In this document: positions 41,560 through 59,000 of the stretch, in pieces
How the letters are laid out: each line of letters opens with the position of its first letter
How positions within the stretch are numbered: position 1 is the first letter of the stretch
Source of the DNA: a candidate division TM6 bacterium GW2011_GWF2_28_16
GTDB taxonomy: Bacteria; Patescibacteriota; Microgenomatia; UBA1400; PJMF01
Length of the DNA stretch: 64,000 nucleotides
Reading direction: 5' to 3'
Assembly: GCA_001029715.1 (NCBI GenBank)
Contig: CP011212.1
Coordinates: forward strand, 617,715-681,714
Translations under genes and position numbers: made by a program
Notes under the pieces: model-generated
Database searches by the model: none
What the model saw: the letters and a program-made list of their open reading frames with translations, nothing else
What the model was told of the DNA's origin: nothing

Positions 41560-44514
41560 ATGGCTTTGAGAAATACTATTAAGATTACCGGAGCTCGTGA
41601 GCATAATCTCAAAAATATTAACTTGGAATTTGAAAAAAATCAGTTAATTGTTTTTACTGGTCTTTCAGGTAGTGGTAAAAGCTCTTTGGCTTTTGATACC
41701 CTGTACGCTGAAGGTCAACGTCGTTACGTTGAATCACTCAGCTCTTATGCTCGTCAATTTTTGGGCGTAATGAATAAGCCAGATGTTGACCAAATTGATG
41801 GTTTGTCTCCAGCAATTTCAATTGACCAAAAAACCACCTCTCACAATCCTCGCTCAACCGTTGGTACCATTACTGAAATTTATGATTATTGTCGTTTACT
41901 TTTTGCTAGAGTAGGGCATCCTCATTGCCATAACTGTGGTAAAGAAATTAGCACTCAGAGTATTGATCAAATCATTACTCAAATTTTTAATCAGATTGAA
42001 GAAAAATTTGCGAAAGCAAAAAACACTCCGCAAAAAATTATGATTTTGTCGCCAGTCATTAAAGAGAGAAAAGGCGAATTTGATAAGTTGCTCCAAAACC
42101 TAATTAAAAAAGGCTATAACAAGGCTAGAATTGATGGGCAAATTTATAACTTAGATCAAGAATTAAACCTTATTAAAACTAATAAACACAGCATTGATGC
42201 CTTGATTGATCGCTTGGTAATCAGTAAGGTTCAGTTAAATGACAAAAAAGAATCAACTATCTTAAAAAGTAGACTCAATCAATCAATTGAAGAAGCTCTT
42301 AAACTTGCTGGAGGCTTAGTTATTGTTAGCTGGGTTAACGATTCTAGCTTTACTTTTCCAGAGAATCCTCAGGATACTAAAGATTTTCTTTTTAGTGAAA
42401 ATCTCGCTTGTAGTGATTGTGGTATTTCTCTTAAAGAGCTGGAGCCACGTTCTTTCTCTTTTAATTCGCCTGAAGGAGCCTGTCCGAAATGTAATGGTCT
42501 AGGCTCGATTTTAAAAATTAATCCTGACAGAATTATTGCTCCAAGTTTAACCATGAGCGAAGGGGCAGTTATTCCTTTTGCGCGCATGATGGGCAACGAA
42601 GGTTGGTTTGCTCGTTTAGTCAGAATTGTTTTGGAAGATTTTTCTGCCGATTTTCGTATGACTAAATGGGAAGATATGTCCAAAGAATTGCAAGATATTT
42701 TGCTTTACGGTAGCGAGAAAATTTATGATGTGGTTGGCGAGAACCGTTTCGGCAATATGACTAGTTATCAAAGTAAATTTGAAGGTTTTATTAAAAATCT
42801 CGAACGTCGCTACACTGAAACTGATAGTGAATTTATTCGTCGAGAAATTAATCAGTTTATGCATAAGGAAGTTTGCCCAGATTGTAAGGGTGCTCGTCTC
42901 AAAGAAGAAGTGCTTTCTGTCACCATTGATGAAATCAATATTTCTCAATTTAGCCAACTAACTATTGATCGCAGTTTGAAATGGATTGAAAAAGTCAGTA
43001 ATCCAAAAGAAAAAATCCTATCCGCTAAAGAACTACAGATTGCCACTTCGATTCTCAAAGAGATTAAAACTCGTTTGCACTTTCTTTCTGCTGTTGGTTT
43101 AAACTATCTAACTATTTCTAGAGAAGCAGCTAGCTTGGCTGGTGGTGAGGCTCAAAGAATTAGACTAGCTTCACAGATTGGCACAGGCCTCACAGGCGTT
43201 CTCTATATTCTTGATGAACCAACTATTGGCCTTCATCAAAGAGATAATCGCCGTTTAATCGAAACTCTCCAAGAATTAAAAAATAAAGGCAATACTATTG
43301 TCGTCGTTGAGCATGATCGCGACATCATGATGGCGGCTGATCACATTATTGATTTTGGACCTAAGGCTGGCAGTGAGGGTGGAGAAATAGTTTTTGATGG
43401 TAGCTATGAAGAAATTTTGAAAGCCAAAGATTCTCTCACTGGCAAATATTTATCTAGAAAAAAAGAAATTAAAAGAGAAAAAACTGCTAATAAAAAAGAT
43501 GTTCATAAAAAGGCTAAAATTGCTATTCATGGTGCAAAATATAATAACCTAAAAAACATCGACGTAGAGATACCACTCAATGCTCTTACCTGTATCACTG
43601 GTATTTCTGGTTCTGGCAAATCTACCTTATTGCATAATGTCTTACATAATCATTTAGCAAAAAATCTTGGCTATACTTATTCTGGAAAATTAGCGGAAGT
43701 AGAAAAAATTTCTATTCCACCACAAGTTAAAAGACTAAGCATGATTGACCAAAGTCCAATTGGTAAAACTCCAAGATCTAATCCGGCCACCTACACCAAA
43801 GCTTTCGATTATATTCGCCAGATTTTTGCTCGCACTAAAGATGCGGCCATGCGTGGCTATAAAATAGGTCGCTTTAGTTTTAACGTTAAGGGCGGCCGCT
43901 GTGAAGCTTGCCAGGGTGAGGGCCAAATCAAAATTGAAATGCAGTTTTTACCAGATGTTTATGTAGAGTGTGATGTCTGCCATGGTCAACGTTACAACGA
44001 AGAAACTCTGCAAGTTTTATATCAAGATAAAAACATTGCTCAAGTCTTAGATCTCAGCATTGATGAAGCTTTTGATTTTTTCAAAAATCACAGCAACATC
44101 CGTCAGCGCATGCAAACTCTTAAAGAAGTTGGCTTGGGTTATTTGAAACTGGGTCAACCAGCTCCAACCTTAAGTGGTGGTGAAGCACAAAGAGTTAAAT
44201 TAGCCAAAGAGTTAAGTACTAGGTCTCATGATCATTTAATTTATCTTTTAGATGAACCAACTACTGGACTCCATTTTGCTGATATTCAAAAACTACTCAA
44301 CGTCTTACATCAATTAGTTGAACAAGATAACACTGTGATTTTAATTGAACATAACTTAGACGTCATTAAAAATGCTGACTGGCTAATCGATCTCGGACCA
44401 GAGGGTGGAGAATACGGTGGCGAAGTGGTTGCTTTTGGCACTCCAGCTGAAGTGGCAGAAAACGAGAAATCCTTTACCGGTCATTATTTGAAAGAAGAAT
44501 TAAGCAGAAATTAA
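41560..44514 (+). CDS. uvrA: Excinuclease ABC subunit A
   Basis: Two ABC ATPase modules (GLSGSGKSSLAF, GISGSGKSTLL). Zinc-finger cysteines and LSGGEAQR signatures are present. Confidence 0.95.
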   Translation: MALRNTIKITGAREHNLKNINLEFEKNQLIVFTGLSGSGKSSLAFDTLYAEGQRRYVESLSSYARQFLGVMNKPDVDQIDGLSPAISIDQKTTSHNPRSTVGTITEIYDYCRLLFARVGHPHCHNCGKEISTQSIDQIITQIFNQIEEKFAKAKNTPQKIMILSPVIKERKGEFDKLLQNLIKKGYNKARIDGQIYNLDQELNLIKTNKHSIDALIDRLVISKVQLNDKKESTILKSRLNQSIEEALKLAGGLVIVSWVNDSSFTFPENPQDTKDFLFSENLACSDCGISLKELEPRSFSFNSPEGACPKCNGLGSILKINPDRIIAPSLTMSEGAVIPFARMMGNEGWFARLVRIVLEDFSADFRMTKWEDMSKELQDILLYGSEKIYDVVGENRFGNMTSYQSKFEGFIKNLERRYTETDSEFIRREINQFMHKEVCPDCKGARLKEEVLSVTIDEINISQFSQLTIDRSLKWIEKVSNPKEKILSAKELQIATSILKEIKTRLHFLSAVGLNYLTISREAASLAGGEAQRIRLASQIGTGLTGVLYILDEPTIGLHQRDNRRLIETLQELKNKGNTIVVVEHDRDIMMAADHIIDFGPKAGSEGGEIVFDGSYEEILKAKDSLTGKYLSRKKEIKREKTANKKDVHKKAKIAIHGAKYNNLKNIDVEIPLNALTCITGISGSGKSTLLHNVLHNHLAKNLGYTYSGKLAEVEKISIPPQVKRLSMIDQSPIGKTPRSNPATYTKAFDYIRQIFARTKDAAMRGYKIGRFSFNVKGGRCEACQGEGQIKIEMQFLPDVYVECDVCHGQRYNEETLQVLYQDKNIAQVLDLSIDEAFDFFKNHSNIRQRMQTLKEVGLGYLKLGQPAPTLSGGEAQRVKLAKELSTRSHDHLIYLLDEPTTGLHFADIQKLLNVLHQLVEQDNTVILIEHNLDVIKNADWLIDLGPEGGEYGGEVVAFGTPAEVAENEKSFTGHYLKEELSRN

Positions 44515-44527
44515 TGTAAAATAAAGT

Positions 44528-46558
44528 TTGATGCTTATTCGTTTTATCAAGAAGATTATCTTTTCTTTTTTCCTTATTGTTGTTTTTTCAACTCAAATTG
44601 CTTCTGCCCAAACGAGTGAAGCCCTTGATGAAATTCCTGCTGATGGTTCTGAAAATTTCACCATTACTCTACACAGCACTTACACCGTTACCGCCACTGG
44701 TAAAACCATTGTTGAGCAAAAATTTCAGATCAAAAATAAAAACCCAGAATTATTCGTCAGTAAATATGGGATCGTCGTTAGCTCCACAAATTTAAACAAT
44801 GTTAAAGTCAGCCACAATGGTAAAGAGCTAGAACCTTTGACTACTAGTCAAAAAGGTCAAACCAGCATTGGGGTAACTTTTGAAGATAAAGTTGTCGGCG
44901 AAGGCAAAAACAACGAGCTGGTGATTAGCTACACCGATCAAGATATTGCTCTAATTAGTGGCAAAATTTTGGAAGTTAATATTCCCAAGCTTTCTGACCA
45001 TTATCAGTATCAGAGCTATCAATTAGAGCTACGCGTGCCAAGCATTTTTGATACTCCTAGTCGCATTAGCCCAAGTACTTTTACTCTTAAACAAGATGGC
45101 GACTATAATGTTATTAGCTATAGCGATCTTAAAGATCAGTCTGTTTCAGCAATCTTTGGCAACAAGCAAATTTTTGATTTAAAATTAAATTATTATTTAG
45201 ACAACCCAAGTAGTCAAAATGCCCTAACTCAGATCACTCTTCCCCCAGAAACTCCCTACCAAAAAGTTTATTATCTAAATCTTGATCCTATGCCTAATAA
45301 TATAAAAGAGGATCAAGATGGCAATTTCATTGCTACCTATGAAATTCCTGCTAATAATTCTTTTAATGTTGAGCTTTTTGCCCAAATTACATTAACTCTT
45401 CGTGAAAATCCACTCATTCCTTTTAGTCCTGTTTTGCCTGCTCATCTCACTGAACAAAAATTTTGGGAAATAAATAGCCAAGAAATAATCAGTGCTACTC
45501 AAAATCTTGATGGTGTTAAAAGTATTTATGACTTCACTGTCGAAAAGCTAAATTACACCTCAAAAAATCTTGACCAAAATTTTGAAAGACTGGGTGCAGT
45601 GACCGCACTCAATAAGGCAAATGAAAATGATGCCACCTGTCAAGAGTTTACCGATTTATTTATTACTTTGGCCAGACAGGAAGGTATTCCTGCACGCAGG
45701 GTGGTTGGCATTGCTTATTCAAATAATGAAGAGTTGCGCCCTAGCAATTTAGCTAGCGATATTTTGCACACCTGGCCAGAATATTATAATCAAGAACAAA
45801 AAGCTTGGTTAAGGTCAGATCCTACCTGGGAAGATACTACTGGTGGCATAGATTACTTTAATAATTTCGATCTTAATCACATCGCCCTAGCAATTAATGG
45901 CTCATCTAGTACTTTGCCTTACCCTGCAGGTTCATATTTGGGGAATAATGATGAAAAAAACAAAAAAATATATTTAGATTTTTCTAAAGAAGAGCTAGCC
46001 GAAATTAATCCTGATTTAGAAATAAACTTACTTAATAAAAAAGTCTCTGGTCTTAATATTCCAGGGAATTACGACATACAAATATTTAATAAAACTGGCA
46101 AAGTTTGGTATTTCTCAGATGTAAAAATTAGTGGCAATGATTTGGAAATTGTCATCAATCAAGATCATGAAGTGCAAAAAATTCTGCCTTTTTCCAAAAT
46201 AGTTTTGCCAATCACAGTTTATAATAAGGATAATAACATTACTCAAAAGTATAAAATCGAGGTAGTGGTCATTTTAAAAGAAGGCCAATTCGCTAAAAAT
46301 GAATTCGAAGTCAAAGCAAGTCCTCAACTCAAAATTGAAGATCCCAAAAAAATCATTTTCTTGGGAGCTGGATTTATTATCTCTACCCTCATCACCGGGA
46401 GTTTATTCTTTCTTGGACGCAGATGGGCAAATTCTTTACGTAGGAAAGGCCAAAAACTTGAAGAAGAGGGTCACAAGCTACAAGAGATCTCAACTGCTCT
46501 CAAAGAAAATCAAGAAAATGACGGAGTTAGCAAGGAGAGTGGAACACCAAGTTCTTGA
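44528..46558 (+). CDS. Secreted/surface protein with a transglutaminase-like (papain-fold) core and a C-terminal TM anchor
   Basis: Signal peptide. The motif …TCQEFTDLFITLARQEGIPARRVVG… matches the G/TCxxFA…R..GIPAR.V.G Cys motif. A downstream HTWPEYY supplies His and D-containing blocks follow. The C-terminal TM helix IIFLGAGFIISTLITGSLFFLG is followed by RRW. Confidence 0.6.
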   Translation: MMLIRFIKKIIFSFFLIVVFSTQIASAQTSEALDEIPADGSENFTITLHSTYTVTATGKTIVEQKFQIKNKNPELFVSKYGIVVSSTNLNNVKVSHNGKELEPLTTSQKGQTSIGVTFEDKVVGEGKNNELVISYTDQDIALISGKILEVNIPKLSDHYQYQSYQLELRVPSIFDTPSRISPSTFTLKQDGDYNVISYSDLKDQSVSAIFGNKQIFDLKLNYYLDNPSSQNALTQITLPPETPYQKVYYLNLDPMPNNIKEDQDGNFIATYEIPANNSFNVELFAQITLTLRENPLIPFSPVLPAHLTEQKFWEINSQEIISATQNLDGVKSIYDFTVEKLNYTSKNLDQNFERLGAVTALNKANENDATCQEFTDLFITLARQEGIPARRVVGIAYSNNEELRPSNLASDILHTWPEYYNQEQKAWLRSDPTWEDTTGGIDYFNNFDLNHIALAINGSSSTLPYPAGSYLGNNDEKNKKIYLDFSKEELAEINPDLEINLLNKKVSGLNIPGNYDIQIFNKTGKVWYFSDVKISGNDLEIVINQDHEVQKILPFSKIVLPITVYNKDNNITQKYKIEVVVILKEGQFAKNEFEVKASPQLKIEDPKKIIFLGAGFIISTLITGSLFFLGRRWANSLRRKGQKLEEEGHKLQEISTALKENQENDGVSKESGTPSS

Positions 46559-47669
46559 TAGTGAAATTGAAGCCTTACTAATTGAGGCAGAACTCATCAA
46601 AGCTCACCAACCATACTTCAATAGCCGATTAAAAGATGATAAGTCCAATATTTATCTTTTGATTAGCAAAGAAAAATTTCCAAAAATTTTAAGAGTTCGT
46701 AAAACTGATTTAAGTAAAAAAAAGTACCAAGAAAAACTGGCTCTTTTTGGCCCCTTCGCCAGTAGCTATCGTTTAAATGAATTATTAAAAATCATTCGTC
46801 CTATTTTTAGATGGTGTAATCAAGCCAATCAAAAACAAAATAAAGCCTGTCTCTATCATCACATCGATCTTTGCTCTGGAGCCTGTTGCCAAAAAATTAG
46901 CGAAGAAGAATATCAAAAAGACATTCAACAATTAATAATTTTTCTAAAAGGACAAAAAAAAGATCTGCTTAAAGAATTAGAAAAAGAGATGCTGGCCCTT
47001 GCCAAAGAAGAGGCTTTTGAAAAAGCTCAGCTCAATAAAAACAAGCTCGCATTAATTAAAGAAATTACCAGTAATAAATATAAGTTGAAGTCAGACCTTA
47101 TTTTGCCAAATTTCTCTCAAGAAGAAAACAAAGAAGCTCTGATTCACCTAAGAAAAATTCTTCATCAGGATGGTGTAGTTGGTCAAAACCAAGAATTCAA
47201 GCGTATTGAAGGTTATGATGTCAGCAATACCATGGGACAAAACGCCACAGTTTCTATGGTTGTTTTAACAAATGGAGAAGCAGACCAGAGCCAATATAAA
47301 TTTTTCAAGATTCGCACATTAAATACTCCCAATGACTATCAAATGTTACAAGAGGCATTAAAAAGAAGACAAAATCATCCAGAATGGGGAGAACCAGACC
47401 TAGTTATGATGGACGGTGGCAAGGGCCAAGTCAGAGCAGTTGCCAAAATTTGGCAAAGTCAGACCCCAGTTATTGGTTTGGTAAAAAATCCAGATCGTCT
47501 AGTAATTTGTTTTAAAAATAAAGAAAAAAAAGATGCTTTAGAAACAAAAATTATTCAACTACAAGAAAACCATCCAACTCTTAAAATGTTGCAACGACTA
47601 CGCGATGAAGCTCATCGCTTCGCCAAAAAACAGCATACTCGACTTAGAGAGAAAAATCTTCTAAAATGA
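46299..47669 (+). CDS. uvrC: Excinuclease ABC subunit C, short form lacking the C-terminal (HhH)2 domain. The start is uncertain, and the gene overlaps the 3' end of the upstream gene in another frame.
   Basis: GIY-YIG motif [33 protein letters not shown], a UvrB-interacting UVR-like region and an RNase-H-like endonuclease domain ([11 protein letters not shown]…[11 protein letters not shown]). The protein ends ~150 aa earlier than canonical UvrC. Confidence 0.8.
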   Translation: [456 protein letters not shown]

Positions 47670-47673
47670 AACT

Positions 47674-48036
47674 ATGAAATTTATTAAAGCGATCATTTCC
47701 TCAATTCTAACCATTGCTCTTTTAGCCTGGTTTTTCCCAAATATTAATTACAGTGGCTCACTTACTTTAATTATTGCTGCTGTTGTTTTGACTTTGCTAG
47801 AAAAACTCGTCAGGCCAATTCTTAAAATTTTGTTTCTGCCAATTAACGTAGTAACTCTAGGGCTTTTCTCTCTGGTTATTAATGTTTTTATTCTTTACTT
47901 AGCTACTTATCTTGTCCCGGGTTTTGTAATCAGTAACGTGGTTATATTTGGAATTCACTTCAATCAATTCTTTTCATTGCTTCTGGTCTCATCCTTGATT
48001 GGTTTTCTGCAAGGGGCTTTCGCCATGATCTTGTAA
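47674..48036 (+). CDS. DUF360/phage-holin-4_2 family small 4-TM membrane protein
   Basis: LPINVVTLGLFSLVINVFILYLATYLVPGF block characteristic of PF04020. Confidence 0.6.
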   Translation: MKFIKAIISSILTIALLAWFFPNINYSGSLTLIIAAVVLTLLEKLVRPILKILFLPINVVTLGLFSLVINVFILYLATYLVPGFVISNVVIFGIHFNQFFSLLLVSSLIGFLQGAFAMIL

Positions 48037-48055
48037 AATGTTATAATAAAAGATA

Positions 48056-49087
48056 ATGAAAATTACTCAAATTGCCCTAATCTCCTTTGTTTTATTTCAG
48101 TTCCTAATCAGTTCCTTGATTAGTCCAAGGTTTGCTTTAGCTCAAACCAGCACTGCTAAAACAATTAATGTCTCAACCACTGATACTTTATTAGAAAATC
48201 CCGAGGCCACTCTTGCTGGAGAGGCAGCCGAATCCACTGATAGTGGCAAGCTTTCTTCACCTTCAGCTGAGGTAGTAGAGAAGTTGCAACAGAAAACCGA
48301 CCAAGATATTACAGAAACTAGTGGTCAGAAAAAAAGTGTTTTAGCTGCTTATTTAGACGAACATCCAGTCGGAAAATTGAGCTGGAATAACCTTATTCAG
48401 AAAGCCATTCGTAAAGCTATTTCTAGTGGTATGCCTGCCAATATTATTGTTATTTTGCTTATTTTCCCAATTATTGCCTCCTTAGTTGCTTTTTCTAGAC
48501 ACGTCATTGGTTTAAAAGGCTTTGGCATCTATATCCCAGCTGTTTTATCAGTAGCTTTTGTGTCTACTGGTATTTTAACTGGAGTAACCGTTTTTGTAGC
48601 TGTTTTATTAGCTGCTCTTTTCACCAGACCAATTCTTAAAAAATTGAAGCTACCAATGCTCCCAAGAACCGCCATGCTACTTATGAGCGTCTCGATTACA
48701 GTTCTGGCATTGATGTTAGTTGGTTCAATTTATAACATTGATTTAGTTATTGATATCAGTATCTTTCCTCTGTTAATCATAATACTTTTGACCGAAAACT
48801 TCATGGAGACCCAGCTTTTTAATAGTCAAAAAGAAGCTCTGCAAATAACTTTTGAGACTTTACTTATTGCTGTTCTATGTTCACTAATTCTTGGTTCAGA
48901 AACTATCCAAAAATTTGTTATTTTAAGACCAGAACTCACCTTAATCGGAGTCGCTCTAATCAACTTCGCAATTGGTAAATACACTGGCTTACGCTTCCTT
49001 GAATATCTAAGGTTTAGAGATCTGCTAAATCAAAATAATAAGTTTAAAGACACTTCTTCAGATAATAATTCTCAAGAAGAGGAATAA
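48056..49087 (+). CDS. Seven-TM membrane protein with an N-terminal secreted region, resembling the 7TM module that partners RimK-like ATP-grasp/transglutaminase systems
   Basis: A signal peptide and ~110-aa extracytoplasmic segment precede seven predicted TM helices. It sits immediately upstream of the ATP-grasp gene. Confidence 0.5.
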   Translation: MKITQIALISFVLFQFLISSLISPRFALAQTSTAKTINVSTTDTLLENPEATLAGEAAESTDSGKLSSPSAEVVEKLQQKTDQDITETSGQKKSVLAAYLDEHPVGKLSWNNLIQKAIRKAISSGMPANIIVILLIFPIIASLVAFSRHVIGLKGFGIYIPAVLSVAFVSTGILTGVTVFVAVLLAALFTRPILKKLKLPMLPRTAMLLMSVSITVLALMLVGSIYNIDLVIDISIFPLLIIILLTENFMETQLFNSQKEALQITFETLLIAVLCSLILGSETIQKFVILRPELTLIGVALINFAIGKYTGLRFLEYLRFRDLLNQNNKFKDTSSDNNSQEEE

Positions 49088-49092
49088 GTCTA

Positions 49093-50382
49093 ATGTTTGT
49101 TAATAAAGCCAAAGATCTCTTGGGAATTAATGCTCGTAATTCTTTGTACCTGAGCCGTAGTTCTGGTAAAGCCAAGGCTATTGTTCATTCCAAATACGCT
49201 ACTAAAATTCTTTTACGAGACAATGACATAGCCACTGCAGAAATTTATGGCATCCTTGGTACAGGAGAAGATGTTAATGATTTTGATTGGCAAAATTTAG
49301 ATAAGAATTTCGTGATCAAACCAACCAACGGCTATGCTGGCACTGGAGTAGTAGCTTTTCGTGAAAAAACTGCCGATGGTGTTTGGATTGACATGCTCGG
49401 TAAAAAATGGGATTTAGCCGACTTAAAATTGCATTGCGATGATATTCTCTCTGGTCAATATAGCATTCATGGATTAAATCATAACGTTATTATTGAAGAA
49501 AGAATTCCAATTCATCCAAAATTACTTAAATATTCATATAAGGGAACCCCTGATATTAGAGTCATTGTTTTTAACAGTGTTCCAGTCATGGCTATGTTGC
49601 GCTTACCAACTGAAGAATCTGGTGGCCGCGCTAATGTTACCCAAGGAGCAATTGCTGTTGGTATAGATATCGCCACCGGAATTACTACTTATGCCGTGGC
49701 TCATAAAAGTAATGCCATCCGTTATTTGCCAGGTACCAAAAAGAAACTTAATGGAATTATTATTCCAGAGTGGGACAGAATGCTCGAGACTGCAGTTACT
49801 GCTAGTAATGCGGCTGAGCTAAATTTTGCTGGCGTAGATCTTTTCATACACAAAGAAAAAGGACCCATGGTCGTGGAGCTCAATGCAGCACCTGGACTAA
49901 CTATCCAAGCTGCTAATCGAGCAGGTTTGCGTAGACGCTTGGAAAGAGTCGAAGACCTTAGTATCCAAAATCCAAAACATGGAGTAAAAGTTGCTCAGGC
50001 ACTTTTTGCCAGCGATTTTGCATCTAAAATTAAAAATAGGGCAGATTTCCCAGTTGTTTCTCTCCAAGAAGAAGTTATTGTTTGGGGAGATGATAAACAA
50101 AAGATTGAAACCACTGCCTTTTTAAACACTGGTCGTTTCAGTAGTGCTATCTCTAAAAAATTAGCTCAAGAACTTGGCTTAATTGATGTTGATGACTTAC
50201 TCTGGTTCCAGTCAGAACAAGAAGAGGGAAAAGTTCCAGTAGTTGAAGTCAAATTTAAGATTAAGGAACAAGTTGTTAAAACAACTATGATCGTCAGTAA
50301 TAAATTAAATAGCAAAAAAAATAAAATTGAAATTGGCCGTCAGGATTTAAAAAACTTTATCATTCGTTTTGATGAAGAATAA
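49093..50382 (+). CDS. RimK-like ATP-grasp ligase (alpha-L-glutamate-ligase-related) fused to a C-terminal retropepsin-like (RimB/PF05618-like) domain
   Basis: ATP-grasp blocks FVIKPTNGYAGTGV and AGVDLFIHKEKGPMVVELNAAPGL. The C-terminal ~120 aa has FLNTGRFSSA in place of the DTG(A) retropepsin catalytic motif. Confidence 0.65.
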   Translation: MFVNKAKDLLGINARNSLYLSRSSGKAKAIVHSKYATKILLRDNDIATAEIYGILGTGEDVNDFDWQNLDKNFVIKPTNGYAGTGVVAFREKTADGVWIDMLGKKWDLADLKLHCDDILSGQYSIHGLNHNVIIEERIPIHPKLLKYSYKGTPDIRVIVFNSVPVMAMLRLPTEESGGRANVTQGAIAVGIDIATGITTYAVAHKSNAIRYLPGTKKKLNGIIIPEWDRMLETAVTASNAAELNFAGVDLFIHKEKGPMVVELNAAPGLTIQAANRAGLRRRLERVEDLSIQNPKHGVKVAQALFASDFASKIKNRADFPVVSLQEEVIVWGDDKQKIETTAFLNTGRFSSAISKKLAQELGLIDVDDLLWFQSEQEEGKVPVVEVKFKIKEQVVKTTMIVSNKLNSKKNKIEIGRQDLKNFIIRFDEE

Positions 50383-51352
50383 AAACATGCCTAAACTAAA
50401 TGACTTAGTTCCAACTAATTTAGAGAGTGAAAAAGAAAAATTTTTTGCTTCTGGTTTTCGTTATAATCCGCAATTCATTTATCAAAAGAATATCTCCGAA
50501 AAAGAACTAATCAGATATGGCAAACCAAAATTATGGTACTTATTTTTGGCCAAAAGAATTCTCAGAAAATATTTGAAACAGAATGATCTTGTAAGTCAAA
50601 AAATAAATAATAAGATTTTTCTTGACCAAGATGGAGTAGAGGACTTAATTGAAGAAAGATTGGGCAACTATGGTTTAGCTAGTCGCTATAAAATTATTTT
50701 TTCTAAAGATTTTATCAGTCGGATTGCAGTCAATAATAACAATGAAGTTATTAAAGTGCGCCTGCCAATAATGATCGATAAAAACGAGATTGAAGCCATC
50801 CTAAATCATGAGATAGATACCCATATAATTAGACAGTTAAATTATGAAAGGCAACCTTGGTTTAAAAAGAAAAAAAGCAACGCTTTTAAGCCATATCTGC
50901 GCACCGAGGAGGGTCTCGCTGCTGTCAATGAGTTGATTGTAAGCGAATCTAAACTAGCTTATAAATCAGCAGCTAATTATTTGGCAGTTGATCTGGCTCT
51001 TAAAAAAGATTTTGTGACGGTTTTTAATTTCTTCTATAAAATCTGGCAAGATTCGGAGAGAGCTTGGACTTGGACTTTGAAGAAAAAAAGAGGAATAAGA
51101 GACACTAACAAAAAAGGAGCTTTTACCAAAGACTTAGTTTATTTTGAAGGTTTCATGCAGGTTCTACGTTATCTCAAAAAAAATGATTGCAATCCAACTG
51201 AGCTTTACTATGGAAAGATAAATTATAAAGACGTAAAAAAAGCCAAAAAAAACTGCTCTCAAGAAGAATTAATTTTGCCAAAATTTTTCACAAAAGACAA
51301 AGAAGCTTACAAACAAGCCGTAACTGAAATTATTAAGAATAATTTATTTTAA
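50369..51352 (+). CDS. DUF1704/MATCAP-family putative metallocarboxypeptidase (QEGLA-motif protein)
   Basis: Atypical zinc motif HEIDTH (HExxxH) followed ~30 aa later by TEEGLAAVNE (QEGLA-like). Confidence 0.6.
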   Translation: MMKNKNMPKLNDLVPTNLESEKEKFFASGFRYNPQFIYQKNISEKELIRYGKPKLWYLFLAKRILRKYLKQNDLVSQKINNKIFLDQDGVEDLIEERLGNYGLASRYKIIFSKDFISRIAVNNNNEVIKVRLPIMIDKNEIEAILNHEIDTHIIRQLNYERQPWFKKKKSNAFKPYLRTEEGLAAVNELIVSESKLAYKSAANYLAVDLALKKDFVTVFNFFYKIWQDSERAWTWTLKKKRGIRDTNKKGAFTKDLVYFEGFMQVLRYLKKNDCNPTELYYGKINYKDVKKAKKNCSQEELILPKFFTKDKEAYKQAVTEIIKNNLF

Positions 51353-52592
51353 TAGCTTCTTTCACCTGTTTAAACAACTGAATAGCTAGATTTTTACTCT
51401 TTAAACAATCATTAGCCTCTACATAAAAACTCACAATAGTTTTTCCACCAAACTTAGCTTGCTCCGCTAAATCACCAATTTTATCTCTTATTTTTATGTT
51501 GCTGACAGCTGGATTTTTATACAAAAAATCTAAATCTATTTTTTTAATCAAGCCTTTCTTATCAGCAAAATATTCCACTACTGAAATGGCTCTTTGTGGC
51601 TGATCTATTTCTTCAATATCAAGACCAGCGGCAGTTTGAAACACTGCAAGACTATAATCAAATCCAGTGGTCAAAATTGTCATTTCAGCACGATTGCCAC
51701 CACCCCTAGGGGTAGATTCAATTACTGAGTACTGATTGTTTTTCTCATCAAAAAATACTTCAGTGTGGCAAACACAGTTTCTAGCAGAAAGAGCATTGAG
51801 GGCTTTTGTCACCGTTTGATAAACTAGCTTTTCTTGGCGCTTCGTAAGCACGGTCGGCATAGTTCTAATTGGTAAATAAGTATCATCTAACCCCAACTCA
51901 TGAGCCATAACGTATTCACAAATAGGAGTATGAATGAGACGATTCCCTGAAACAAAGGTGTCAACTGTCAACTCTCTACCATAAAGCATTTCTTCCAATA
52001 AAAACTGACAATCCTCTGATTTATGTTTATAACCCTCAACTGGTTTGGAAGTGACATAACCGCTAACTTGGCTTTTCAAAAAAGCTAATTTTTCAAACAG
52101 ATCTTCTTTAGATTTAACTTTAACCACATAATTCGAATGAGCAGCTGAAGTTTTTTTAAGGATTAAAGGAAAAGAATGTCTTTCCAAAAATTCATCTAGA
52201 TGATTTAAATTGTCTAGACAAATCCCATCGGCACAGGGAACCTGTGCTGCTAGCCATTTTTGCTTCATTAAATATTTATTACAAAAATTTCTAGAGGTTG
52301 CATAGTCAATACCATCTAAACCAAGATATTGGTTAATCGCTCCAACTATAGTTACATAGTTCTCATGCCTTGTTAAAACAACATCAATTTTTTCGCCCTG
52401 ATCTATGGCATTTCTTAATTGCTTCCAATTGTAAATATCTTCAACCACTAAGACTTGGTTAAAAAGTTTTTCATATTCATTTTTGTACTTATCACGATTA
52501 ATTAGTAAACTAATTTTAGCGTCAGTTTTTAAAGCTGATTCTAAATAAATTTTCTTTCCACCAAAGCCAATCATGAGAAAATGAAGTTGCAT
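51333..52592 (-). CDS. ATP-grasp domain enzyme (carboxylate-amine/peptide ligase type), convergent with the DUF1704 gene
   Basis: PLILKKTSAAHSNYVVKV, EEMLYGRELTVDTF and C-terminal ATP-grasp blocks. An N-terminal pre-ATP-grasp domain is present. Confidence 0.6.
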   Translation of the reverse strand: MQLHFLMIGFGGKKIYLESALKTDAKISLLINRDKYKNEYEKLFNQVLVVEDIYNWKQLRNAIDQGEKIDVVLTRHENYVTIVGAINQYLGLDGIDYATSRNFCNKYLMKQKWLAAQVPCADGICLDNLNHLDEFLERHSFPLILKKTSAAHSNYVVKVKSKEDLFEKLAFLKSQVSGYVTSKPVEGYKHKSEDCQFLLEEMLYGRELTVDTFVSGNRLIHTPICEYVMAHELGLDDTYLPIRTMPTVLTKRQEKLVYQTVTKALNALSARNCVCHTEVFFDEKNNQYSVIESTPRGGGNRAEMTILTTGFDYSLAVFQTAAGLDIEEIDQPQRAISVVEYFADKKGLIKKIDLDFLYKNPAVSNIKIRDKIGDLAEQAKFGGKTIVSFYVEANDCLKSKNLAIQLFKQVKEAIKINYS

Positions 52593-52655
52593 ATTTTTAT
52601 CTTTTTATGATTTCAAAGAAGGTATTTTAGTACAATATGTCTGTTACGCAATATG

Positions 52656-54698
52656 TCAAATTTTTTTGATTTCTAGGGGAATCTCTTCTTCTTTTTTCTC
52701 GAGGGAAAACAATTGGCTGGCTGAGATCAGGCCATCTTTTTCTAAAGCATAGTTTTTAGCAAAAGCAGAGATGAAAACTTTGTCAAAAGAATGCTTAATA
52801 ACTTTAGATTTTGAAAATTCAAAAGGCATAACCAATGATTGAGCTTTTTCACTGCCTTCTTCAAATAACGACATAATCAGGTTGTTGGAAAATTGATTAC
52901 CACTAGATAATTTTACTAATAAATTTAAAGATTTTTGCTTTTTAAGTAAGTAGAACAATTTATAAATAAGGATAAACAAATAGACTAATAAAATTGCACT
53001 ATTAAACATACTTTGATAACGCAAAGCAAAAAGCAAAGCAAATAATAAAGAAATAATCAAAAACCAAAATGGATAATCTAATAAATACAAAACAAAAATA
53101 CGCAATCTCTCAAAAAATGGCAACTTTTCTTGACCGGTAGCCCGCAAGGTAGGAATTAAGATCGGCTGACCATGATAATTCTCATCATCAAACATTTGAT
53201 TTTGATAGAACTGCCAAAAATCTAGTTGATTTGGCTTCTCATCGCCAATTGGATAATAGAAGTTACCATCTTTGACCTGCAATCTCCAAGAGCTACTGAT
53301 TGGAAAATTTAAATCGTTGAAATTACCCTGCAAATTAGTAATAGTAAAATCAAGCAACTGCTCATTTTGATCAAACAGCTCCACTTTCACTAGGGGACTG
53401 GCTAAAGTTTCCTTATATTCAAAAACCAAATGCTTATTAGCTTTAAATATAAACGGGAAAAGGAGCATTGAAACTTTTTTTAACAAGGAAATGGAAATAT
53501 CTTTCATAAACTTGCTTAGTAAAAGCAAAAAGGCTGAGAAATAAAATAAAAGCAAAAATAAAGAAGTGAGAAATAAGGATAAGTTTAGCCAAGTTTTCGA
53601 CTTTAAAAAAGTTCTTAGATAATCTCCAGTTGTCTCTGGCAAAAGTTCTATCAATTCGTCCCCAACTTCATGGATAATTTCTTTTGGCGGAACAATTGGA
53701 ATAATTCCAGTCGGTGCTGGTGATTGGGTTGAAGTCAAAGTTGGACTAATGCTTGGTTTAGAACTTGGCTCAACACTCGTGCTAACACTAGGGCTTAGCG
53801 TTGGAGTTGCAGTTGGAGTTGTCGTTATAGTTGTCGGCGTGGCTGTTGGCCAGTATTGTAGACTGATGCGAAAATAAACTTTTTCCAAAACACTAACCTG
53901 ACCAGCCTGATCAGTAATAATAAAATCAAGCCTAATATCAACATCGCGAGGTAGAATTCCCAGTTTTAATTCATAATAACCACTACTATCAATAGTAGTA
54001 TTAAAAATCTGAGTAGGATCGTCTGGGATAATAACAGTCAACTGAACGTTACTATTAGCTTCGCCACCAGCTATAAGGATTGGCTCATTAGCAGTAGCAT
54101 CATTTTGAAAAATAAGGATTGGGCTACTTGGCACAGTTCCCACATCTGCGGCTGAAATACTTACAACAGTATCTCCAATTTTTGTAAGTATAAAGCTTGG
54201 CGCCTGAGTATCAATTCTAAAGTCCCAGGTATCCGATGATGCACTCAGCCCTGCATAATCAACTGCCACTATTTTCCAGGTGGCAGAACCGTCTGAAAGA
54301 GCGTTTTTTGGAGTTAGAGTGTAAGTCCCATCTATTCCATCATAATCTAACAAATAATGGCTATTATCAGTGTCTACCAAGGGAACATTGCTATAAAAAA
54401 CATTATTATTTAAATAAAAAACGTAATGTGACAAAGCAAGATTGTCAGTTGATTCATACCATTTAAAAGAAGGGGTGCTGTCACTTAAAATCGCTCCATC
54501 ACTAGGTTCTATTAGAATTGGTGCTGATGGTGCTTCTAAATCTGGTATGTTTGCACTTATATTTATATCTTCAGCTAAAACCACAGATTTAGCAGAAAAA
54601 AGCAAAAAAAGAGTCAAAAAAGATAAGAAGAAATTAGTTTTCTTGCTGTGGATTTTTAGGTTCTTCATTATTTGTTTCCAAATCAGTGGTGGAAGCAA
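52656..54698 (-). CDS. Large surface/membrane protein: signal peptide, Ig/FN3-like repeats, Thr/Pro-rich linker and a C-terminal multi-TM domain
   Basis: Signal peptide, beta-rich repeats, the linker TATPTTITTTPTATPTLSPSVSTSVEPSSKPSISPTLTSTQSPAPTG and at least 5 hydrophobic helices at the C-terminus. Confidence 0.5.
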   Translation of the reverse strand: MLPPLIWKQIMKNLKIHSKKTNFFLSFLTLFLLFSAKSVVLAEDINISANIPDLEAPSAPILIEPSDGAILSDSTPSFKWYESTDNLALSHYVFYLNNNVFYSNVPLVDTDNSHYLLDYDGIDGTYTLTPKNALSDGSATWKIVAVDYAGLSASSDTWDFRIDTQAPSFILTKIGDTVVSISAADVGTVPSSPILIFQNDATANEPILIAGGEANSNVQLTVIIPDDPTQIFNTTIDSSGYYELKLGILPRDVDIRLDFIITDQAGQVSVLEKVYFRISLQYWPTATPTTITTTPTATPTLSPSVSTSVEPSSKPSISPTLTSTQSPAPTGIIPIVPPKEIIHEVGDELIELLPETTGDYLRTFLKSKTWLNLSLFLTSLFLLLFYFSAFLLLLSKFMKDISISLLKKVSMLLFPFIFKANKHLVFEYKETLASPLVKVELFDQNEQLLDFTITNLQGNFNDLNFPISSSWRLQVKDGNFYYPIGDEKPNQLDFWQFYQNQMFDDENYHGQPILIPTLRATGQEKLPFFERLRIFVLYLLDYPFWFLIISLLFALLFALRYQSMFNSAILLVYLFILIYKLFYLLKKQKSLNLLVKLSSGNQFSNNLIMSLFEEGSEKAQSLVMPFEFSKSKVIKHSFDKVFISAFAKNYALEKDGLISASQLFSLEKKEEEIPLEIKKI

Positions 54699-55641
54699 CT
54701 GGATTAATTTCCTTACTAGCTTCTTTACGCTTCTTTACTGAAATGAACAAAATAATGCCTATCAAAATTACAACTAAAGTTAATAAAATTATTTTGACAG
54801 GAATCAAATATAAACCAGCGCTTGCCACCATCACGCCACCTTGACTACCATAGGCTGACTCGACAATTGCTTTATAGTAACCAAGACCCCAAACTTTATT
54901 CCAAGTTCCAGAAAAACTTCTATTACTTTTTGGGAAAATGTTTTTAGCCTCAAGCTCAATACTTTCAATTTCTTTGCCAAATAAATTATAAATTTTTAAA
55001 ATTGGCTTCGTATTAATATGGACATCTGACTCATTATTTATATCCAAAGAAAAATCAACTGGACCGTTTTCTAAAAACTTTGGCCAATTAAAACTGGTTA
55101 TATAAGCTTCTTCATTAATTGGACCTGTTACTATCACATAGAGTAAAGTTCCCACCCTTTGTGAAATACCAGCTCCAGAATCTACAACTGGATTTGAATT
55201 TATTGGGCGATGATAAATCATTGCATAGTGACCACCAGGAAGAGCGTCTTTTGGAACTTCAATTAAAACATTCACTATCGCAACTTCTTCATTGGCCAAG
55301 GTATGTTCTGCTGGAGCCAAAGTTAACCAAGTAGCTAGACTCCAACGTAAATCTGCTTCTTCTGCACTAATTACTATGGGAGTAGAACCATCTTCAGCCA
55401 CTACAAAATCGGCAACCTGACTTTCTAATACAACTTGGTCAGTAGAACCATTGCGCACTTTGATTTGAACTTGTTTTTTCTCTCCAGGAGCAAGACTAAT
55501 GCTGAAATCGTCCCCTAACCGAACTGGTGTTGCTGTTAAAGACATTGAAGAAGAAGCTTGGGCTTGATTGAAGAAGGAAAAAAGAAAAAATAAACTTAAA
55601 ATAAGAGTATTAATTATTGAAGATGGGCAGATCTTTTTCAT
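54634..55641 (-). CDS. Membrane-anchored cell-surface protein, DUF916/DUF3324-like (PapD-like beta-sandwich N-domain), paralog 1
   Basis: Signal peptide, then LTATPVRL…GEKKQVQIKVRNGSTDQVVLESQVADF. A C-terminal TM helix is followed by KKRK. It is similar to ORF 57160-58218. Confidence 0.45.
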   Translation of the reverse strand: MKKICPSSIINTLILSLFFLFSFFNQAQASSSMSLTATPVRLGDDFSISLAPGEKKQVQIKVRNGSTDQVVLESQVADFVVAEDGSTPIVISAEEADLRWSLATWLTLAPAEHTLANEEVAIVNVLIEVPKDALPGGHYAMIYHRPINSNPVVDSGAGISQRVGTLLYVIVTGPINEEAYITSFNWPKFLENGPVDFSLDINNESDVHINTKPILKIYNLFGKEIESIELEAKNIFPKSNRSFSGTWNKVWGLGYYKAIVESAYGSQGGVMVASAGLYLIPVKIILLTLVVILIGIILFISVKKRKEASKEINPVASTTDLETNNEEPKNPQQEN

Positions 55642-55656
55642 ATTTTTGTTTTTAAT

Positions 55657-57111
55657 TTAAAAAGTAGCAGAGGCCGTATAAACAAGATAATTTTCATAAC
55701 CTCCAGCCGCATTGGTAGCAGCAGGAGTAATACGATAACAAACGTCGACTATGTCGCTAGATGCTACGGTTGCTTTATTAAAAATGGTTTGTGCCACTTC
55801 AGAATCTGCCAAATCAGCAAATTGCTTAGCTGAAAAAGTTCTACTAGATTCATTATAAGTAAAAACCAAAGTCGGAGTACCTGCAGCCGCAACTAAACTA
55901 TAACCAAAACCAGGATCTCCAGAGGCATCTGTCCAATCAGCTGAGGCAGTGTGAGAAGCTCCAGTAACACTAGCGTCACTTATACAGCTAATGCTCGCTG
56001 AACCATCTCCAGCACAAGCAGCGGCATCGCGACCAAGCTGATCATTTTCAGCAGCAGTAACCGAATAGCCTCCAATGGCATTAGTCGTGACAGTCAATCT
56101 TTGGGCAGCATCTGTAAAAGAAGCAACGGTTAGATCACCGAAAGGAACAGTTAGGGCAGTGGTAGTTACATCAGTACTAATTCCGCAAGCAGAGCTACCA
56201 GAATTTAAACCAGCAATTGTAAAAGTTAGCTGTGGAGCAATGGTGGCAGAAACCTTGACTGCATCAATTACGCCTATTTTAGTAACAGTTTGATCAATTA
56301 CAGAATCAGCCGAATCTCTTTGCTGAATAATAACCGCATAAGTGTCTGCCTGGCCAAGCACGTGATCAGTAGAACCTGATTTTGGAGCTGGATTAATCAA
56401 GTCAGAAATAATAAAAGCCTCTTCAGTTGTCCCATCAAAAGGAGTTCCAACAGCACCCAAGCCGTCATAAGCACAAATAAAAGAGTGATAGTTTATTCCA
56501 TCGAGTGTTACTGGAACAGCCTCGGCATTATTTGAAGTAGCAGTGAAAGTACCATAACTAGCAGTAACTGGACAGGCAATCGAAGCTGGAGTTCCATCAG
56601 TATTACCAAACTCAAAACCACCTTCATCTGGATAGCCATCGTGAGAAGTACTGGTGGCTGAAACTGCAGGAACTAAGATTCGAAAAGAACCAGCATTTAA
56701 AGCACTGATGGTAGTTAAGCGCACTGTTAAAGTAGCAGATTGAGAAGCATAGACACCAAAATCATCTGTTATATCACTTGCATCTAAACCAGCAGTTAAA
56801 TTAAAAGTATTGTCGCTAGCGTCATCAATAGTTGTCGCTACAGTATATTCAGAATCATTAATCAAAACAGTGTCACGGTTTTGTAGTTGTAAAACTGATT
56901 CAGATGGGTAATTGGTAACATCAATAGTTACCAAAGAGGAACCGGTTATCTGAGCTCCTTCCAAAGCACCTTTAAAAGAAAGCCTTGCATTACTAAGGGT
57001 GGCTGAAGTACTAGTAAATTCTCCAGAGAAAACTACAAACTTTTTAGCTACAAAAAAGACAATAAAAACTGATGACAGTAAAAATAAACACTTCTTAATA
57101 TTTAAGTTCAT
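55657..57111 (-). CDS. Secreted T/S/A-rich surface protein sharing a conserved C-terminal domain with ORF 58230-59000
   Basis: A signal peptide and repetitive beta-rich sequence. The C-terminal block …ADWTDASGDPGFGYSL…AKQFADLADSEVAQTI…GGYENYLVYTASATF is shared with …TSWTDPAQAGFGFNASG…FRQFADNEASEAMQQI…GNYQTSIVFVAVPGY. Confidence 0.5.
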   Translation of the reverse strand: MNLNIKKCLFLLSSVFIVFFVAKKFVVFSGEFTSTSATLSNARLSFKGALEGAQITGSSLVTIDVTNYPSESVLQLQNRDTVLINDSEYTVATTIDDASDNTFNLTAGLDASDITDDFGVYASQSATLTVRLTTISALNAGSFRILVPAVSATSTSHDGYPDEGGFEFGNTDGTPASIACPVTASYGTFTATSNNAEAVPVTLDGINYHSFICAYDGLGAVGTPFDGTTEEAFIISDLINPAPKSGSTDHVLGQADTYAVIIQQRDSADSVIDQTVTKIGVIDAVKVSATIAPQLTFTIAGLNSGSSACGISTDVTTTALTVPFGDLTVASFTDAAQRLTVTTNAIGGYSVTAAENDQLGRDAAACAGDGSASISCISDASVTGASHTASADWTDASGDPGFGYSLVAAAGTPTLVFTYNESSRTFSAKQFADLADSEVAQTIFNKATVASSDIVDVCYRITPAATNAAGGYENYLVYTASATF

Positions 57112-57159
57112 AGTTCGTATTGTTTTGATTTAAATTTTACTATTTTAATATAAACCACT

Positions 57160-58218: not shown

Positions 58219-58229
58219 ATTAACTTAAT

Positions 58230-59000
58230 CTAATACCCTGGTACCGCTACAAAAACTATACTGGTCTGATAATTGCCAGCCGTTTGATTGCCAGGCATTG
58301 AAGCCTTGTAACTAATGGTGGCAGTGCGATCCAAGGCAACATTACTCGAACCCATAATCTGTTGCATCGCTTCGCTCGCTTCATTATCAGCAAACTGACG
58401 GAAATAATTAGTGTTTACAAAATCACTAGATACATCGTCACCGCTGGCATTAAAACCAAAACCAGCCTGAGCTGGATCGGTCCAAGACGTAGCAATTGTT
58501 TCATCACAATCATTTGCATCACAAGTTGTGTCAATAATAGTATCCGAACCAGCAACCATTCTTAAAGGATGGTTTTCAAAAGCATAAACTCCATAACCAC
58601 CAGCTCCATTAGTGGTAATATTAATTGTATGGGAATCAGTTTTAAAACTGTTTGCAAAAAGCTCTCCTAATTCAATACTCAACTTAGAAATACTAAAAGC
58701 AAAATAATCTATTTGATAAACGTATTGAAAACCACTCCCAATAAAATAATTGCTACTACCATATTGTCCATAAGGTCCAACTGCTAAACCACCCATGGTG
58801 TCAGATAAAATATAAGTATCTCCAGATCTTTTTCCAGAAGCCATATTGAAATTACCAAACTGAATTTTGTAAGAGTCAGACTCCATGTTGTCAGCAAAAA
58901 CCTGGCTTTTTTGTCCGGCAAAAAAATAAAACAGAATAAAAAATAAGAAAACCGGTTGAAAAAGTTTAGCTTTCATCATTTTTTTGAGCCGAGAGCTCAA
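58230..59000 (-). CDS. Secreted surface protein sharing a conserved C-terminal domain with ORF 55657-57111
   Basis: Signal peptide and shared WTD…GFG…QFAD…Y…VxxA C-terminal block. Confidence 0.5.
   Translation of the reverse strand: MSSRLKKMMKAKLFQPVFLFFILFYFFAGQKSQVFADNMESDSYKIQFGNFNMASGKRSGDTYILSDTMGGLAVGPYGQYGSSNYFIGSGFQYVYQIDYFAFSISKLSIELGELFANSFKTDSHTINITTNGAGGYGVYAFENHPLRMVAGSDTIIDTTCDANDCDETIATSWTDPAQAGFGFNASGDDVSSDFVNTNYFRQFADNEASEAMQQIMGSSNVALDRTATISYKASMPGNQTAGNYQTSIVFVAVPGY

Follow-up and report, generated by a model that had tools for sequence, protein, structure and literature searches.

Known Systems and the Conserved Core

The rloABC operon of Pseudomonas aeruginosa was characterized genetically and structurally in 2025 in mBio (PMC12239564). 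In Pseudomonas, the Rlo system influences biofilm formation as well as tolerance of antibiotics and osmotic stress. The loss of the secreted RloA proteases is suppressed when rloB or rloC is deleted, and 96% of RloB matches are found in Proteobacteria (PMC12239564). RloA and RimB both bind and cut poly-glutamate (poly-Glu). For RloA, binding and cleavage apply to poly-Glu of at least eight residues and occur via conserved Arg/Lys. The RloA D48N variant is inactive and was used as a dead control (PMC12239564). Here, we describe a related module in a 64,000-nucleotide (nt) stretch of contig CP011212.1 (positions 617,715 to 681,714), which we call the window and in which all positions are counted. 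The conserved core of the module (window 47674-51352) encodes a holin-like membrane protein with four transmembrane (TM) helices (4TM), a 7TM_transglut protein with seven (7TM protein), an ATP-grasp ligase fused to a retropepsin-fold domain, and a MATCAP-family carboxypeptidase. We tentatively propose, with somewhat less than even confidence, that this core acts at the membrane as a cycle in which amino acids are added to a protein C-terminus and removed again, and that it represents a Patescibacteria version of the Rlo/RimK type.

The module resembles rloABC in several respects. A 7TM_transglut protein is encoded directly 5' of a cytoplasmic ATP-grasp protein of the TIGR02291/ATPgrasp_ST type, a retropepsin-fold module is associated with the pair, and RloA is the best structural match of this module. 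However, the retropepsin fold is here a domain of the cytoplasmic ligase that carries Asn and has no signal peptide, whereas RloA is a separate, secreted, and active protease. The inactive transglutaminase ectodomain (PF14400) is missing from the 7TM protein, which carries an invariant Glu tail that RloB does not have. A MATCAP-family carboxypeptidase and the holin-like 4TM protein are added here, while the rloABC operon has no MATCAP gene, and the host is a Patescibacteria lineage. Since the scores stay under the RloB, TIGR02291, and TIGR02421 cutoffs and the RloA features (signal peptide, Asp) are absent, we regard the module as a variant, not a member, of Rlo. An initial annotation of the region had described the neighborhood of ligase, 7TM protein, and retropepsin as functionally uncharacterized, a statement that the characterization of rloABC has made outdated (PMC12239564). 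For comparison, canonical rloABC was examined in Legionella (L091, L. adelaidensis plasmid 5) and Aeromonas (L092). In the Legionella locus, two convergent genes for C1-family (papain-like) peptidases come after rloABC (L091:6906-9202) and are possibly further linked proteases.

RimK and ArgX/LysX act on the C-terminal Glu of a protein, and cyanophycin synthetase extends the C-terminus of a peptide. The RimK-RimB pair shares with our module an ATP-grasp enzyme, which is structurally nearest to RimK, a retropepsin-fold partner, and a (candidate) acceptor that ends in Glu. The logic that we propose, extension of a C-terminal Glu-Glu end followed by trimming, is also that of RimK and RimB. In our module, however, the partner domain is degenerate at its catalytic site, a zinc exopeptidase of an unrelated family is assigned the trimming, and a neighboring gene encodes the candidate acceptor, a membrane protein instead of S6.

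A third comparison is the tubulin cycle of TTL/TTLL ligases and the MATCAP1/2 (TMCP1/2) enzymes, the latter of which act on acidic tubulin tails by removing Tyr and Glu from the C-terminal end (PMC10499314). The putative eraser of our module is a true homologue of human MATCAP, with the same HExxxH and TEEGLA motifs, the short linker, and the long C-terminal extension. The writer would, in our proposal, also be an ATP-grasp enzyme acting on acidic C-terminal tails. The two cases differ in that these bacteria have no tubulin, the ligase does not belong to the TTL family, and the enzymes are encoded in an operon or fused here but not in eukaryotes.

Gene Linkage and Fusions

All four core genes lie on the plus strand. 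Domains were called from the open reading frame (ORF) listing and from profile searches against Pfam and NCBIfam, and all five domain assignments of the initial annotation passed the curated thresholds at their respective positions. The gene for the Phage_holin_4_2-type 4TM protein (47674-48036; PF04020, E=2.3e-21) comes first, followed by the 7TM_transglut gene (48056-49087; PF14402, E=2.3e-28). After a gap of 5 nt, the ligase fusion begins (49093-50382; PF14397, E=7e-59; TIGR02291, E=3e-71; RimK, E=1.8e-10). The start of the gene for the MATCAP/PF08014 zinc carboxypeptidase (formerly DUF1704; 50369-51352; PF08014, E=1e-30) overlaps the end of the ligase gene, including its stop codon, by 14 nt.

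Conservation of the neighborhood was surveyed by scanning one genome per species with a 19-sequence MATCAP alignment. The best 80 of 283 species matches were analyzed, and the denominators for adjacency are the loci with enough flanking sequence among these 80. The ligase gene is immediately 5' of the MATCAP gene in 67 of 67 loci, mostly with a spacing of -4 to +12 nt, among which overlaps of 1-4 nt predominate. The 7TM gene is immediately 5' of the ligase gene in 64 of 65 loci, as had been annotated for the window, and the holin-like gene is immediately 5' of the 7TM gene in 60 of 64. A neighborhood comparison had been suggested along with the initial annotation, and it shows that the core genes co-occur outside this genome. 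The holin-like gene is missing from Peribacteria-type loci, and its product is a probable accessory membrane component.

In most loci, uvrA, a transglutaminase gene, and uvrC are retained upstream of the core. The order of uvrA, uvrC, and mnmA is also fixed across most loci, which shows how strong synteny alone can be in this lineage. The core genes might then be neighbors merely by synteny in streamlined Patescibacteria genomes, with no shared function. Three observations speak against such an explanation. The core stands without the Uvr and transglutaminase genes in L032 and L033, which hold the holin-like, 7TM, ligase, and MATCAP genes only. A homologous pair of 7TM protein and ligase has been genetically validated as a functional unit in Pseudomonas. 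Finally, ligase and MATCAP form a single polypeptide in a distant lineage and in another context, by which mere synteny is effectively refuted.

The fusions are found in Peribacteria-like metagenome-assembled genomes. Ligase and MATCAP constitute one ORF of approximately 790-806 amino acids in L085 (6636-9005), L087 (6630-9011), and L088 (from nt 5161, 806 amino acids), with Pfam matches to ATPgrasp_ST (1e-62) and MATCAP (3e-50). In L086, the fusion ORF is cut at the contig start. These four loci are the most distant ones; their MATCAP part is 29-32% identical to the window protein, and their genomic context (LeuA/LeuD, UvrD, YkuD) is unrelated to the window block. The retropepsin-like segment is shortened, with the motif DAT or DLS replacing NTG, and the MATCAP part has an insertion of approximately 46 residues that is typical of TIGR02421-type proteins. 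L087 (Peribacteria) retains a 7TM_transglut gene 5' of the fusion, but the encoded protein has a PKD ectodomain. Since single-ORF fusions occur in a distant lineage and in unrelated contexts, the link between ligase and MATCAP goes beyond mere synteny.

The initial annotation had further suggested a write/erase cycle for a C-terminal tag at the membrane. The pairing of ATP-grasp and MATCAP at the center of this idea is strongly backed by the comparisons (67 of 67 loci and the fusions), whereas the retropepsin as a protease, a second ligase, and the transglutaminase found no such backing as its parts.

PF08014 proteins also adjoin other ATP-grasp proteins, namely a GshB-like one on Aminobacter and Sinorhizobium plasmids and a RimK-like one in L008. 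The pairing is no universal rule, as three TIGR02421-type homologues, some in archaeal-looking contexts, lack a ligase neighbor. On the alphaproteobacterial megaplasmids, a conserved trio of genes encodes an N-formylglutamate amidohydrolase, a MATCAP-family protein of 622 amino acids, and a GshB-like ATP-grasp protein (L094:3532-7276 in Aminobacter; L095 in Sinorhizobium medicae pMl3). The 622-residue protein has an N-terminal extension of approximately 270 residues that gave no Pfam match. In tblastn searches, MATCAP-family matches were found on 116 plasmid records, mostly from Sinorhizobium, Rhizobium, and Ensifer.

Ligase and Fused Retropepsin-Fold Domain

The ligase fusion lacks a signal peptide, and a cytoplasmic location is predicted for it. 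Its ATP-grasp domain is encoded by 49093-49977 (PF14397 match), and Lys76, Asp249, Glu262, and Asn264 are invariant across 81 orthologues. The confident model of the full-length protein has a predicted local distance difference test score (pLDDT) of 84.6, and among solved structures, RimK, cyanophycin synthetase, and ArgX/LysX come closest to it. The score against TIGR02291 is 240 bits, under the trusted cutoff of 314.2, and scores of 23-46 bits against the RimK equivalog models compare with cutoffs of 143-331. In a Pfam search, the ligase had no match to the TTL family (PF03133) at E<=0.01. By analogy with its structural neighbors, the protein is predicted to be an amino-acid ligase, and the amino acid is probably Glu.

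The ligase carries a C-terminal extension of approximately 110-130 residues (50050-50382), which is absent from the RloC proteins of Legionella and Aeromonas (314 and 321 amino acids, respectively). The isolated domain did not match PF05618 even at E<=10 in Pfam, the top match being gag-asp_proteas (E=0.063), and its hhalign alignment with Legionella RloA was weak (E=0.063). The core of the AlphaFold2 (AF2) model of the separate domain has a pLDDT of approximately 90. When this model was compared with the Protein Data Bank (PDB) using Foldseek, all of the top 50 matches were retropepsins, with RloA first (9g58, E=1.2e-5), followed by Ddi1, DUF785, and the HIV/HTLV proteases. The retropepsin assignment is therefore based on predicted structure, because the PF05618 and hhalign sequence tests were not significant.

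In the window protein, the motif N-T-G-R replaces D-T/S-G, and the codon of Asn345 lies at 50125-50127. The position of the catalytic Asp is occupied by Asn in 112 of 121 homologues and by Asp in 2. In the genome loci (n=81), 67 have Asn, 7 have Asp, and 6 have Lys at this position. An I-G-R-x-D-L strand is conserved at the C-terminal end of the domain. Since the catalytic Asp is replaced by Asn and the corresponding D48N variant of RloA is inactive, the domain is predicted to be a pseudo-protease. As judged from the model, it is most likely a non-catalytic module for binding of an acidic tail or for dimerization. The ligase had initially been annotated as a RimK-like enzyme fused to a retropepsin of the RimB/PF05618 type. 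Its ATP-grasp nature and, in the AlphaFold model, its retropepsin fold stand, but PF05618 remains unmatched and the catalytic Asp is lost. The variant would supply a natural dead-protease domain.

MATCAP-Family Carboxypeptidase

The carboxypeptidase scores 107.4 bits against PF08014 (cutoff 27). Its zinc site consists of HEIDTH (residues 147-152; 50807-50824) and TEEGLA (residues 179-184; 50903-50920), in which His147, Glu148, His152, and Glu181 are invariant across 82 orthologues. In a phmmer comparison with the catalytic domain of human MATCAP (7z5g), residues 13-325 of the query aligned nearly gaplessly with residues 7-322 of the chain (E=1e-34). The initial assignment to the MATCAP family on the basis of an HExxxH...EGLA zinc site was therefore correct. 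The protein, which lacks a signal peptide, is expected in the cytoplasm. By analogy with the animal enzymes, it is predicted to trim a C-terminal tail.

Another group of the family, TIGR02421 (flavohemoglobin expression-modulating QEGLA motif protein), shares PF08014 and the zinc motifs with the window protein, and its members are also found beside ATP-grasp proteins. The window protein scores 100.8 bits against this equivalog, under the cutoff of 338.65. It differs in lacking the insertion of approximately 46 residues after YNPQF-Y, in having a longer C-terminal extension, and in being paired with another ligase family.

An exhaustive HMMER search collected 1739 representatives of the family at E<=1e-3. 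Among them, animal MATCAP1/KIAA0895(L) proteins from Holothuria, Acanthaster, and marsupials (P0295, P0302, P0307, and other matches of 450-1000 amino acids) scored 125-140 bits over the full length. The window protein resembles the animal proteins as closely as it does most prokaryotic members. By two discrete characters, the eukaryotic enzymes group with the short bacterial proteins that stand alone, apart from the fusion and TIGR02421 types. One is the linker after YNPQF-Y, which has 12 residues (Tyr38-Gly51 in the window protein) versus approximately 58, and the other is the longer C-terminal extension. A crude neighbor-joining tree of 162 MATCAP domains agrees with this grouping, but its internal branches are short and poorly resolved. 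Taken together, these sequence characters hint at a specific relationship of the eukaryotic MATCAPs to the stand-alone bacterial type.

It is conceivable, though doubtful, that the stand-alone MATCAP of Patescibacteria is the closest prokaryotic relative of the eukaryotic one and was already the eraser of a C-terminal Glu tail written by an ATP-grasp enzyme on a membrane protein. If so, the principle of writing and erasing that underlies the tubulin code would go back to a bacterial forerunner. Reversible polyglutamylation at the C-terminus of a bacterial membrane protein would then be seen for the first time, and its acceptor would come from the same operon. In any case, the MATCAP/DUF1704 family gains a bacterial functional context, since its members are paired or fused with ATP-grasp ligases. 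This pairing parallels the tyrosination/glutamylation cycle of tubulin and bears on the origin of the eukaryotic enzymes. The link between bacterial MATCAP homologues and ATP-grasp proteins appears to have gone unremarked previously. In the searchable literature, no paper mentions MATCAP and ATP-grasp together, and bacterial homologues are not discussed in the MATCAP/TMCP paper (PMC10499314).

Glutamate Tail of the 7TM Protein

The 7TM protein comprises a signal peptide, a low-complexity extracellular region of approximately 100 residues, seven TM helices, and a C-tail rich in Lys and Arg. Hydropathy and the positive-inside rule predict the C-tail to be cytoplasmic, which is the compartment of the ligase and the MATCAP-like enzyme. 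Residues 1-152 matched no domain even at E<=10, including the N-terminal transglutaminase domain PF14400. Against the RloB model NF052267, the protein scores 64.8 bits (cutoff 900), and the match covers the C-terminal 7TM half (profile positions 314-507).

The protein of the window ends in ...DNNSQEEE, and the codons of its terminal Glu residues lie at 49076-49084. A terminal Glu is present in 75 of 75 orthologues, which amount to 56 distinct 14-residue tails, all with Glu at the end. The endings are usually -EE, -EEE, or -EEEE, otherwise -QSE, -QAE, -GLEE, or -TPEE, and the preceding sequences are very different. A common ending is ...RFRSIIEEEE, and even the PKD-7TM protein of L087 ends in -QEE. 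On average, 3.07 of the last five residues are acidic in the 7TM family, as compared with 0.03-0.64 in the families of UvrA, UvrC, the transglutaminase, the holin-like protein, and MATCAP. When the 46 window ORFs of at least 150 amino acids are considered, an -EE ending is otherwise found only in the ligase.

RloB has no such tail. The protein ends in ...AKARS in Legionella and in ...PGKDK in Aeromonas, and among 120 RloB sequences of Legionellales, 14 end in E and none in EE, with a mean acidic count of 0.45. The Glu tail therefore occurs in the variant with a cytoplasmic exopeptidase and not in the variant with a secreted endopeptidase. Since the terminal Glu is invariant here and RloB has no Glu tail, the tail is a candidate acceptor or docking site for the ligase.

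An invariant terminal Glu is also what a covalent carrier would need. ArgX and LysX, which are among the structures nearest to the ligase, attach their substrates to the C-terminal Glu of LysW. By analogy, the ligase would attach an amino acid via the side-chain carboxyl of the terminal Glu of the 7TM protein, and the MATCAP-like hydrolase would later release the processed product. We consider this very improbable. The neighborhood has no conserved kinase, reductase, or aminotransferase genes, and MATCAP enzymes are alpha-peptide carboxypeptidases. Runs of two to four Glu are nearer to the acceptors of RimK than to the LysW tail, the motif of which is EDWGE.

Proposed Cycle and Alternatives

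In the cycle that we propose, the cytoplasmic RloC/RimK-like ligase would dock on its 7TM partner. It would then lengthen the cytoplasmic Glu tail of this partner (-EE to -EEEE), most likely by alpha-linked glutamates, comparable to the action of RimK on the Glu-Glu end of S6. The fused retropepsin-fold domain, in which Asn is equivalent to the dead D25N/D48N, would grip the acidic tail or dimerize the enzyme, without cutting. The translationally coupled MATCAP-family carboxypeptidase would strip C-terminal residues singly and thus set the length of the tail. Tail length may tune the envelope role of the 7TM protein and probably that of the holin-like 4TM protein. Since the four-gene module is kept in Patescibacteria genomes of approximately 0.75 Mb, its envelope function is expected to be important. 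The variant supplies a concrete candidate acceptor in the same operon, and three recombinant proteins plus a peptide would suffice for a direct test of the mechanism.

Several points weigh against this proposal. The fusions of L085, L086, and L088 have no adjacent 7TM gene, although the upstream region of L086 lies beyond the contig start and is unreadable. The 7TM protein may therefore not be the sole or obligatory target. The adjacency statistics partly reflect shared ancestry, because the split-gene loci all come from one broad lineage. Binding of poly-Glu by the fused domain is extrapolated from its modeled fold, its homology to RloA/RimB being not significant by sequence. Glu as the amino acid added here is suggested by analogy, and the ligase activity of RloC in Pseudomonas is itself a putative one (PMC12239564). 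The RloB tails that we compared are from Legionellales and one Aeromonas only. The conserved acidic tail could also be a docking or regulatory motif and not an acceptor. Moreover, ligase C-termini are often acidic too. The ligase of the window ends in ...RFDEE, a terminal E is found in 30 of 71 distinct ligase tails, and the last five residues include 1.73 acidic ones on average in the family. Such a tail could reflect self-modification or self-binding by the retropepsin-fold domain.

The fusions without an adjacent 7TM gene are compatible with two other explanations. In the first, the ligase makes a free product, such as poly-alpha-glutamate or another short peptide or polymer, that the 7TM and holin-like proteins export or sense. 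The Glu tail would then only serve to dock the pseudo-retropepsin domain or mimic a primer for it, and the MATCAP-like enzyme would degrade the free product in the cytoplasm or limit its length. RimK does yield free poly-alpha-Glu in vitro (cited in PMC12239564), and cyanophycin synthetase is among the nearest structures. The suppression of the loss of periplasmic RloA proteases by deletion of rloB or rloC in Pseudomonas suggests that an RloBC-dependent product reaches the periplasm. However, a docking motif would not need the terminal position, whereas the very last residue is always Glu, as an acceptor would require. The degrading enzyme here is a cytoplasmic exopeptidase, which poorly fits an exported product, and the proteobacterial system that apparently exports its product has no Glu tail on RloB. 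We therefore regard a free product as possible but not probable.

In the second, the ligase and the MATCAP-like enzyme modify another cytoplasmic C-terminus, such as that of S6 or another Glu-terminated protein. The 7TM protein would be a sensor or regulator, with its tail as a pseudo-substrate inhibitor. A precedent is RimB, which binds and regulates RimK, while the gene for their target S6 lies at another place in the genome (PMC12239564). The variable ectodomains of the 7TM proteins (low-complexity, PKD, or inactive transglutaminase) are also sensor-like. Nevertheless, the conserved neighborhood encodes no candidate target of this kind, and the 7TM and ligase genes adjoin in nearly all loci and overlap or almost touch, which points to stoichiometric partners. 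Modification of a target encoded elsewhere thus seems unlikely to us.

Transglutaminase and Second ATP-Grasp Protein

The initial annotation had grouped five genes, beginning with the transglutaminase and ending with a second ATP-grasp protein, but these do not form a single contiguous cluster. UvrC (46299-47669, plus strand) and the 4TM gene, neither of which it named, intervene between the transglutaminase and 7TM genes. The Transglut_core protein (44528-46558, plus strand; PF01841, E=2e-14, 54.2 bits against a cutoff of 23) does have the Cys-His core ascribed to it. It has a signal peptide and a C-terminal TM helix and is thus secreted and membrane-anchored. Cys371, His414, and Asp431 are invariant in 61 of 61 orthologues, which indicates that the protein is catalytically intact, unlike the inactive transglutaminase of RloB. 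When present (approximately 60 loci), its gene is always between uvrA and uvrC, and its linkage to the module is therefore inseparable from uvrA/uvrC synteny. It is absent at L032, L033, and L085-L088 and was downgraded as a core component for this reason. The transglutaminase is separable from the module, and its membership is uncertain.

In the window, the ORFs of transglutaminase and UvrC overlap in different frames (46299-46558). The GIY-YIG domain of UvrC begins at approximately residue 33, near nt 46395. At least approximately 160 nt of the transglutaminase ORF, encoding the TM anchor and cytoplasmic tail, overlap the N-terminus of UvrC. The overlap is shorter in relatives, with 29-68 nt in called genes.

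The second ATP-grasp protein (51333-52592, minus strand; ATP-grasp_4, PF13535, E=1.2e-13) is encoded convergently with the MATCAP gene and overlaps its 3' end by 20 nt. Gene and domain are real, as initially annotated, but its role in the system is not borne out. Its best PDB relatives are the L-amino-acid ligases RizA (4wd3, 1.4e-6), BacD (2e-6), and BL00235 (approximately 1e-6), and it stays below every NCBIfam equivalog cutoff. Only in the closest relatives (L009-L013, L018, and L020) does an orthologue (50-68% identity) lie alongside, and the protein was rejected as a core component on this ground. Elsewhere, MnmA or TruB fills the position, and unrelated ATP-grasp genes are nearby in some loci. 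From its sequence, it is probably an enzyme of the L-amino-acid/dipeptide-ligase type outside the module.

Surrounding Region

Upstream of the transglutaminase, the plus strand encodes UvrB (38578-40698), a hypothetical protein, and UvrA (41560-44514). These Uvr proteins, like UvrC, were recognized from the ORF listing and profile searches. A scan of 44000-53000 for promoters and terminators gave counts at chance level and did not inform the operon boundaries. The sole promoter-like site with an extended -10 (TG) in this range is weak and lies at 48020-48047, at the end of the holin-like gene and just 5' of the 7TM start.

Downstream of the module, a series of large secreted or membrane proteins is encoded on the minus strand (52656-59742), and this series is also conserved in L001 and L009-L024. 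It consists of a Big_13 Ig-like protein of 680 amino acids followed by proteins of 335, 484, 352, 256, and 258 amino acids, mostly without a Pfam match. The Big_13 gene, which is the sole downstream gene that was tracked, recurs 3' of the module in closer relatives. The series may be a locus for a cell-surface structure.

A bacterial 16S gene is also present in the window, and an annotated protein with 98% identity to the window ligase comes from a genome of the Patescibacteria group. Many contigs with the Patescibacteria-type block (L011, L015, L017, L019, L020, L042, L069, L073, L079, and others) are titled as Pseudomonadales, Methylococcaceae, or Flavobacteriaceae bacterium. Their gene content and their identity to the Pacebacteria loci suggest that these labels are wrong.

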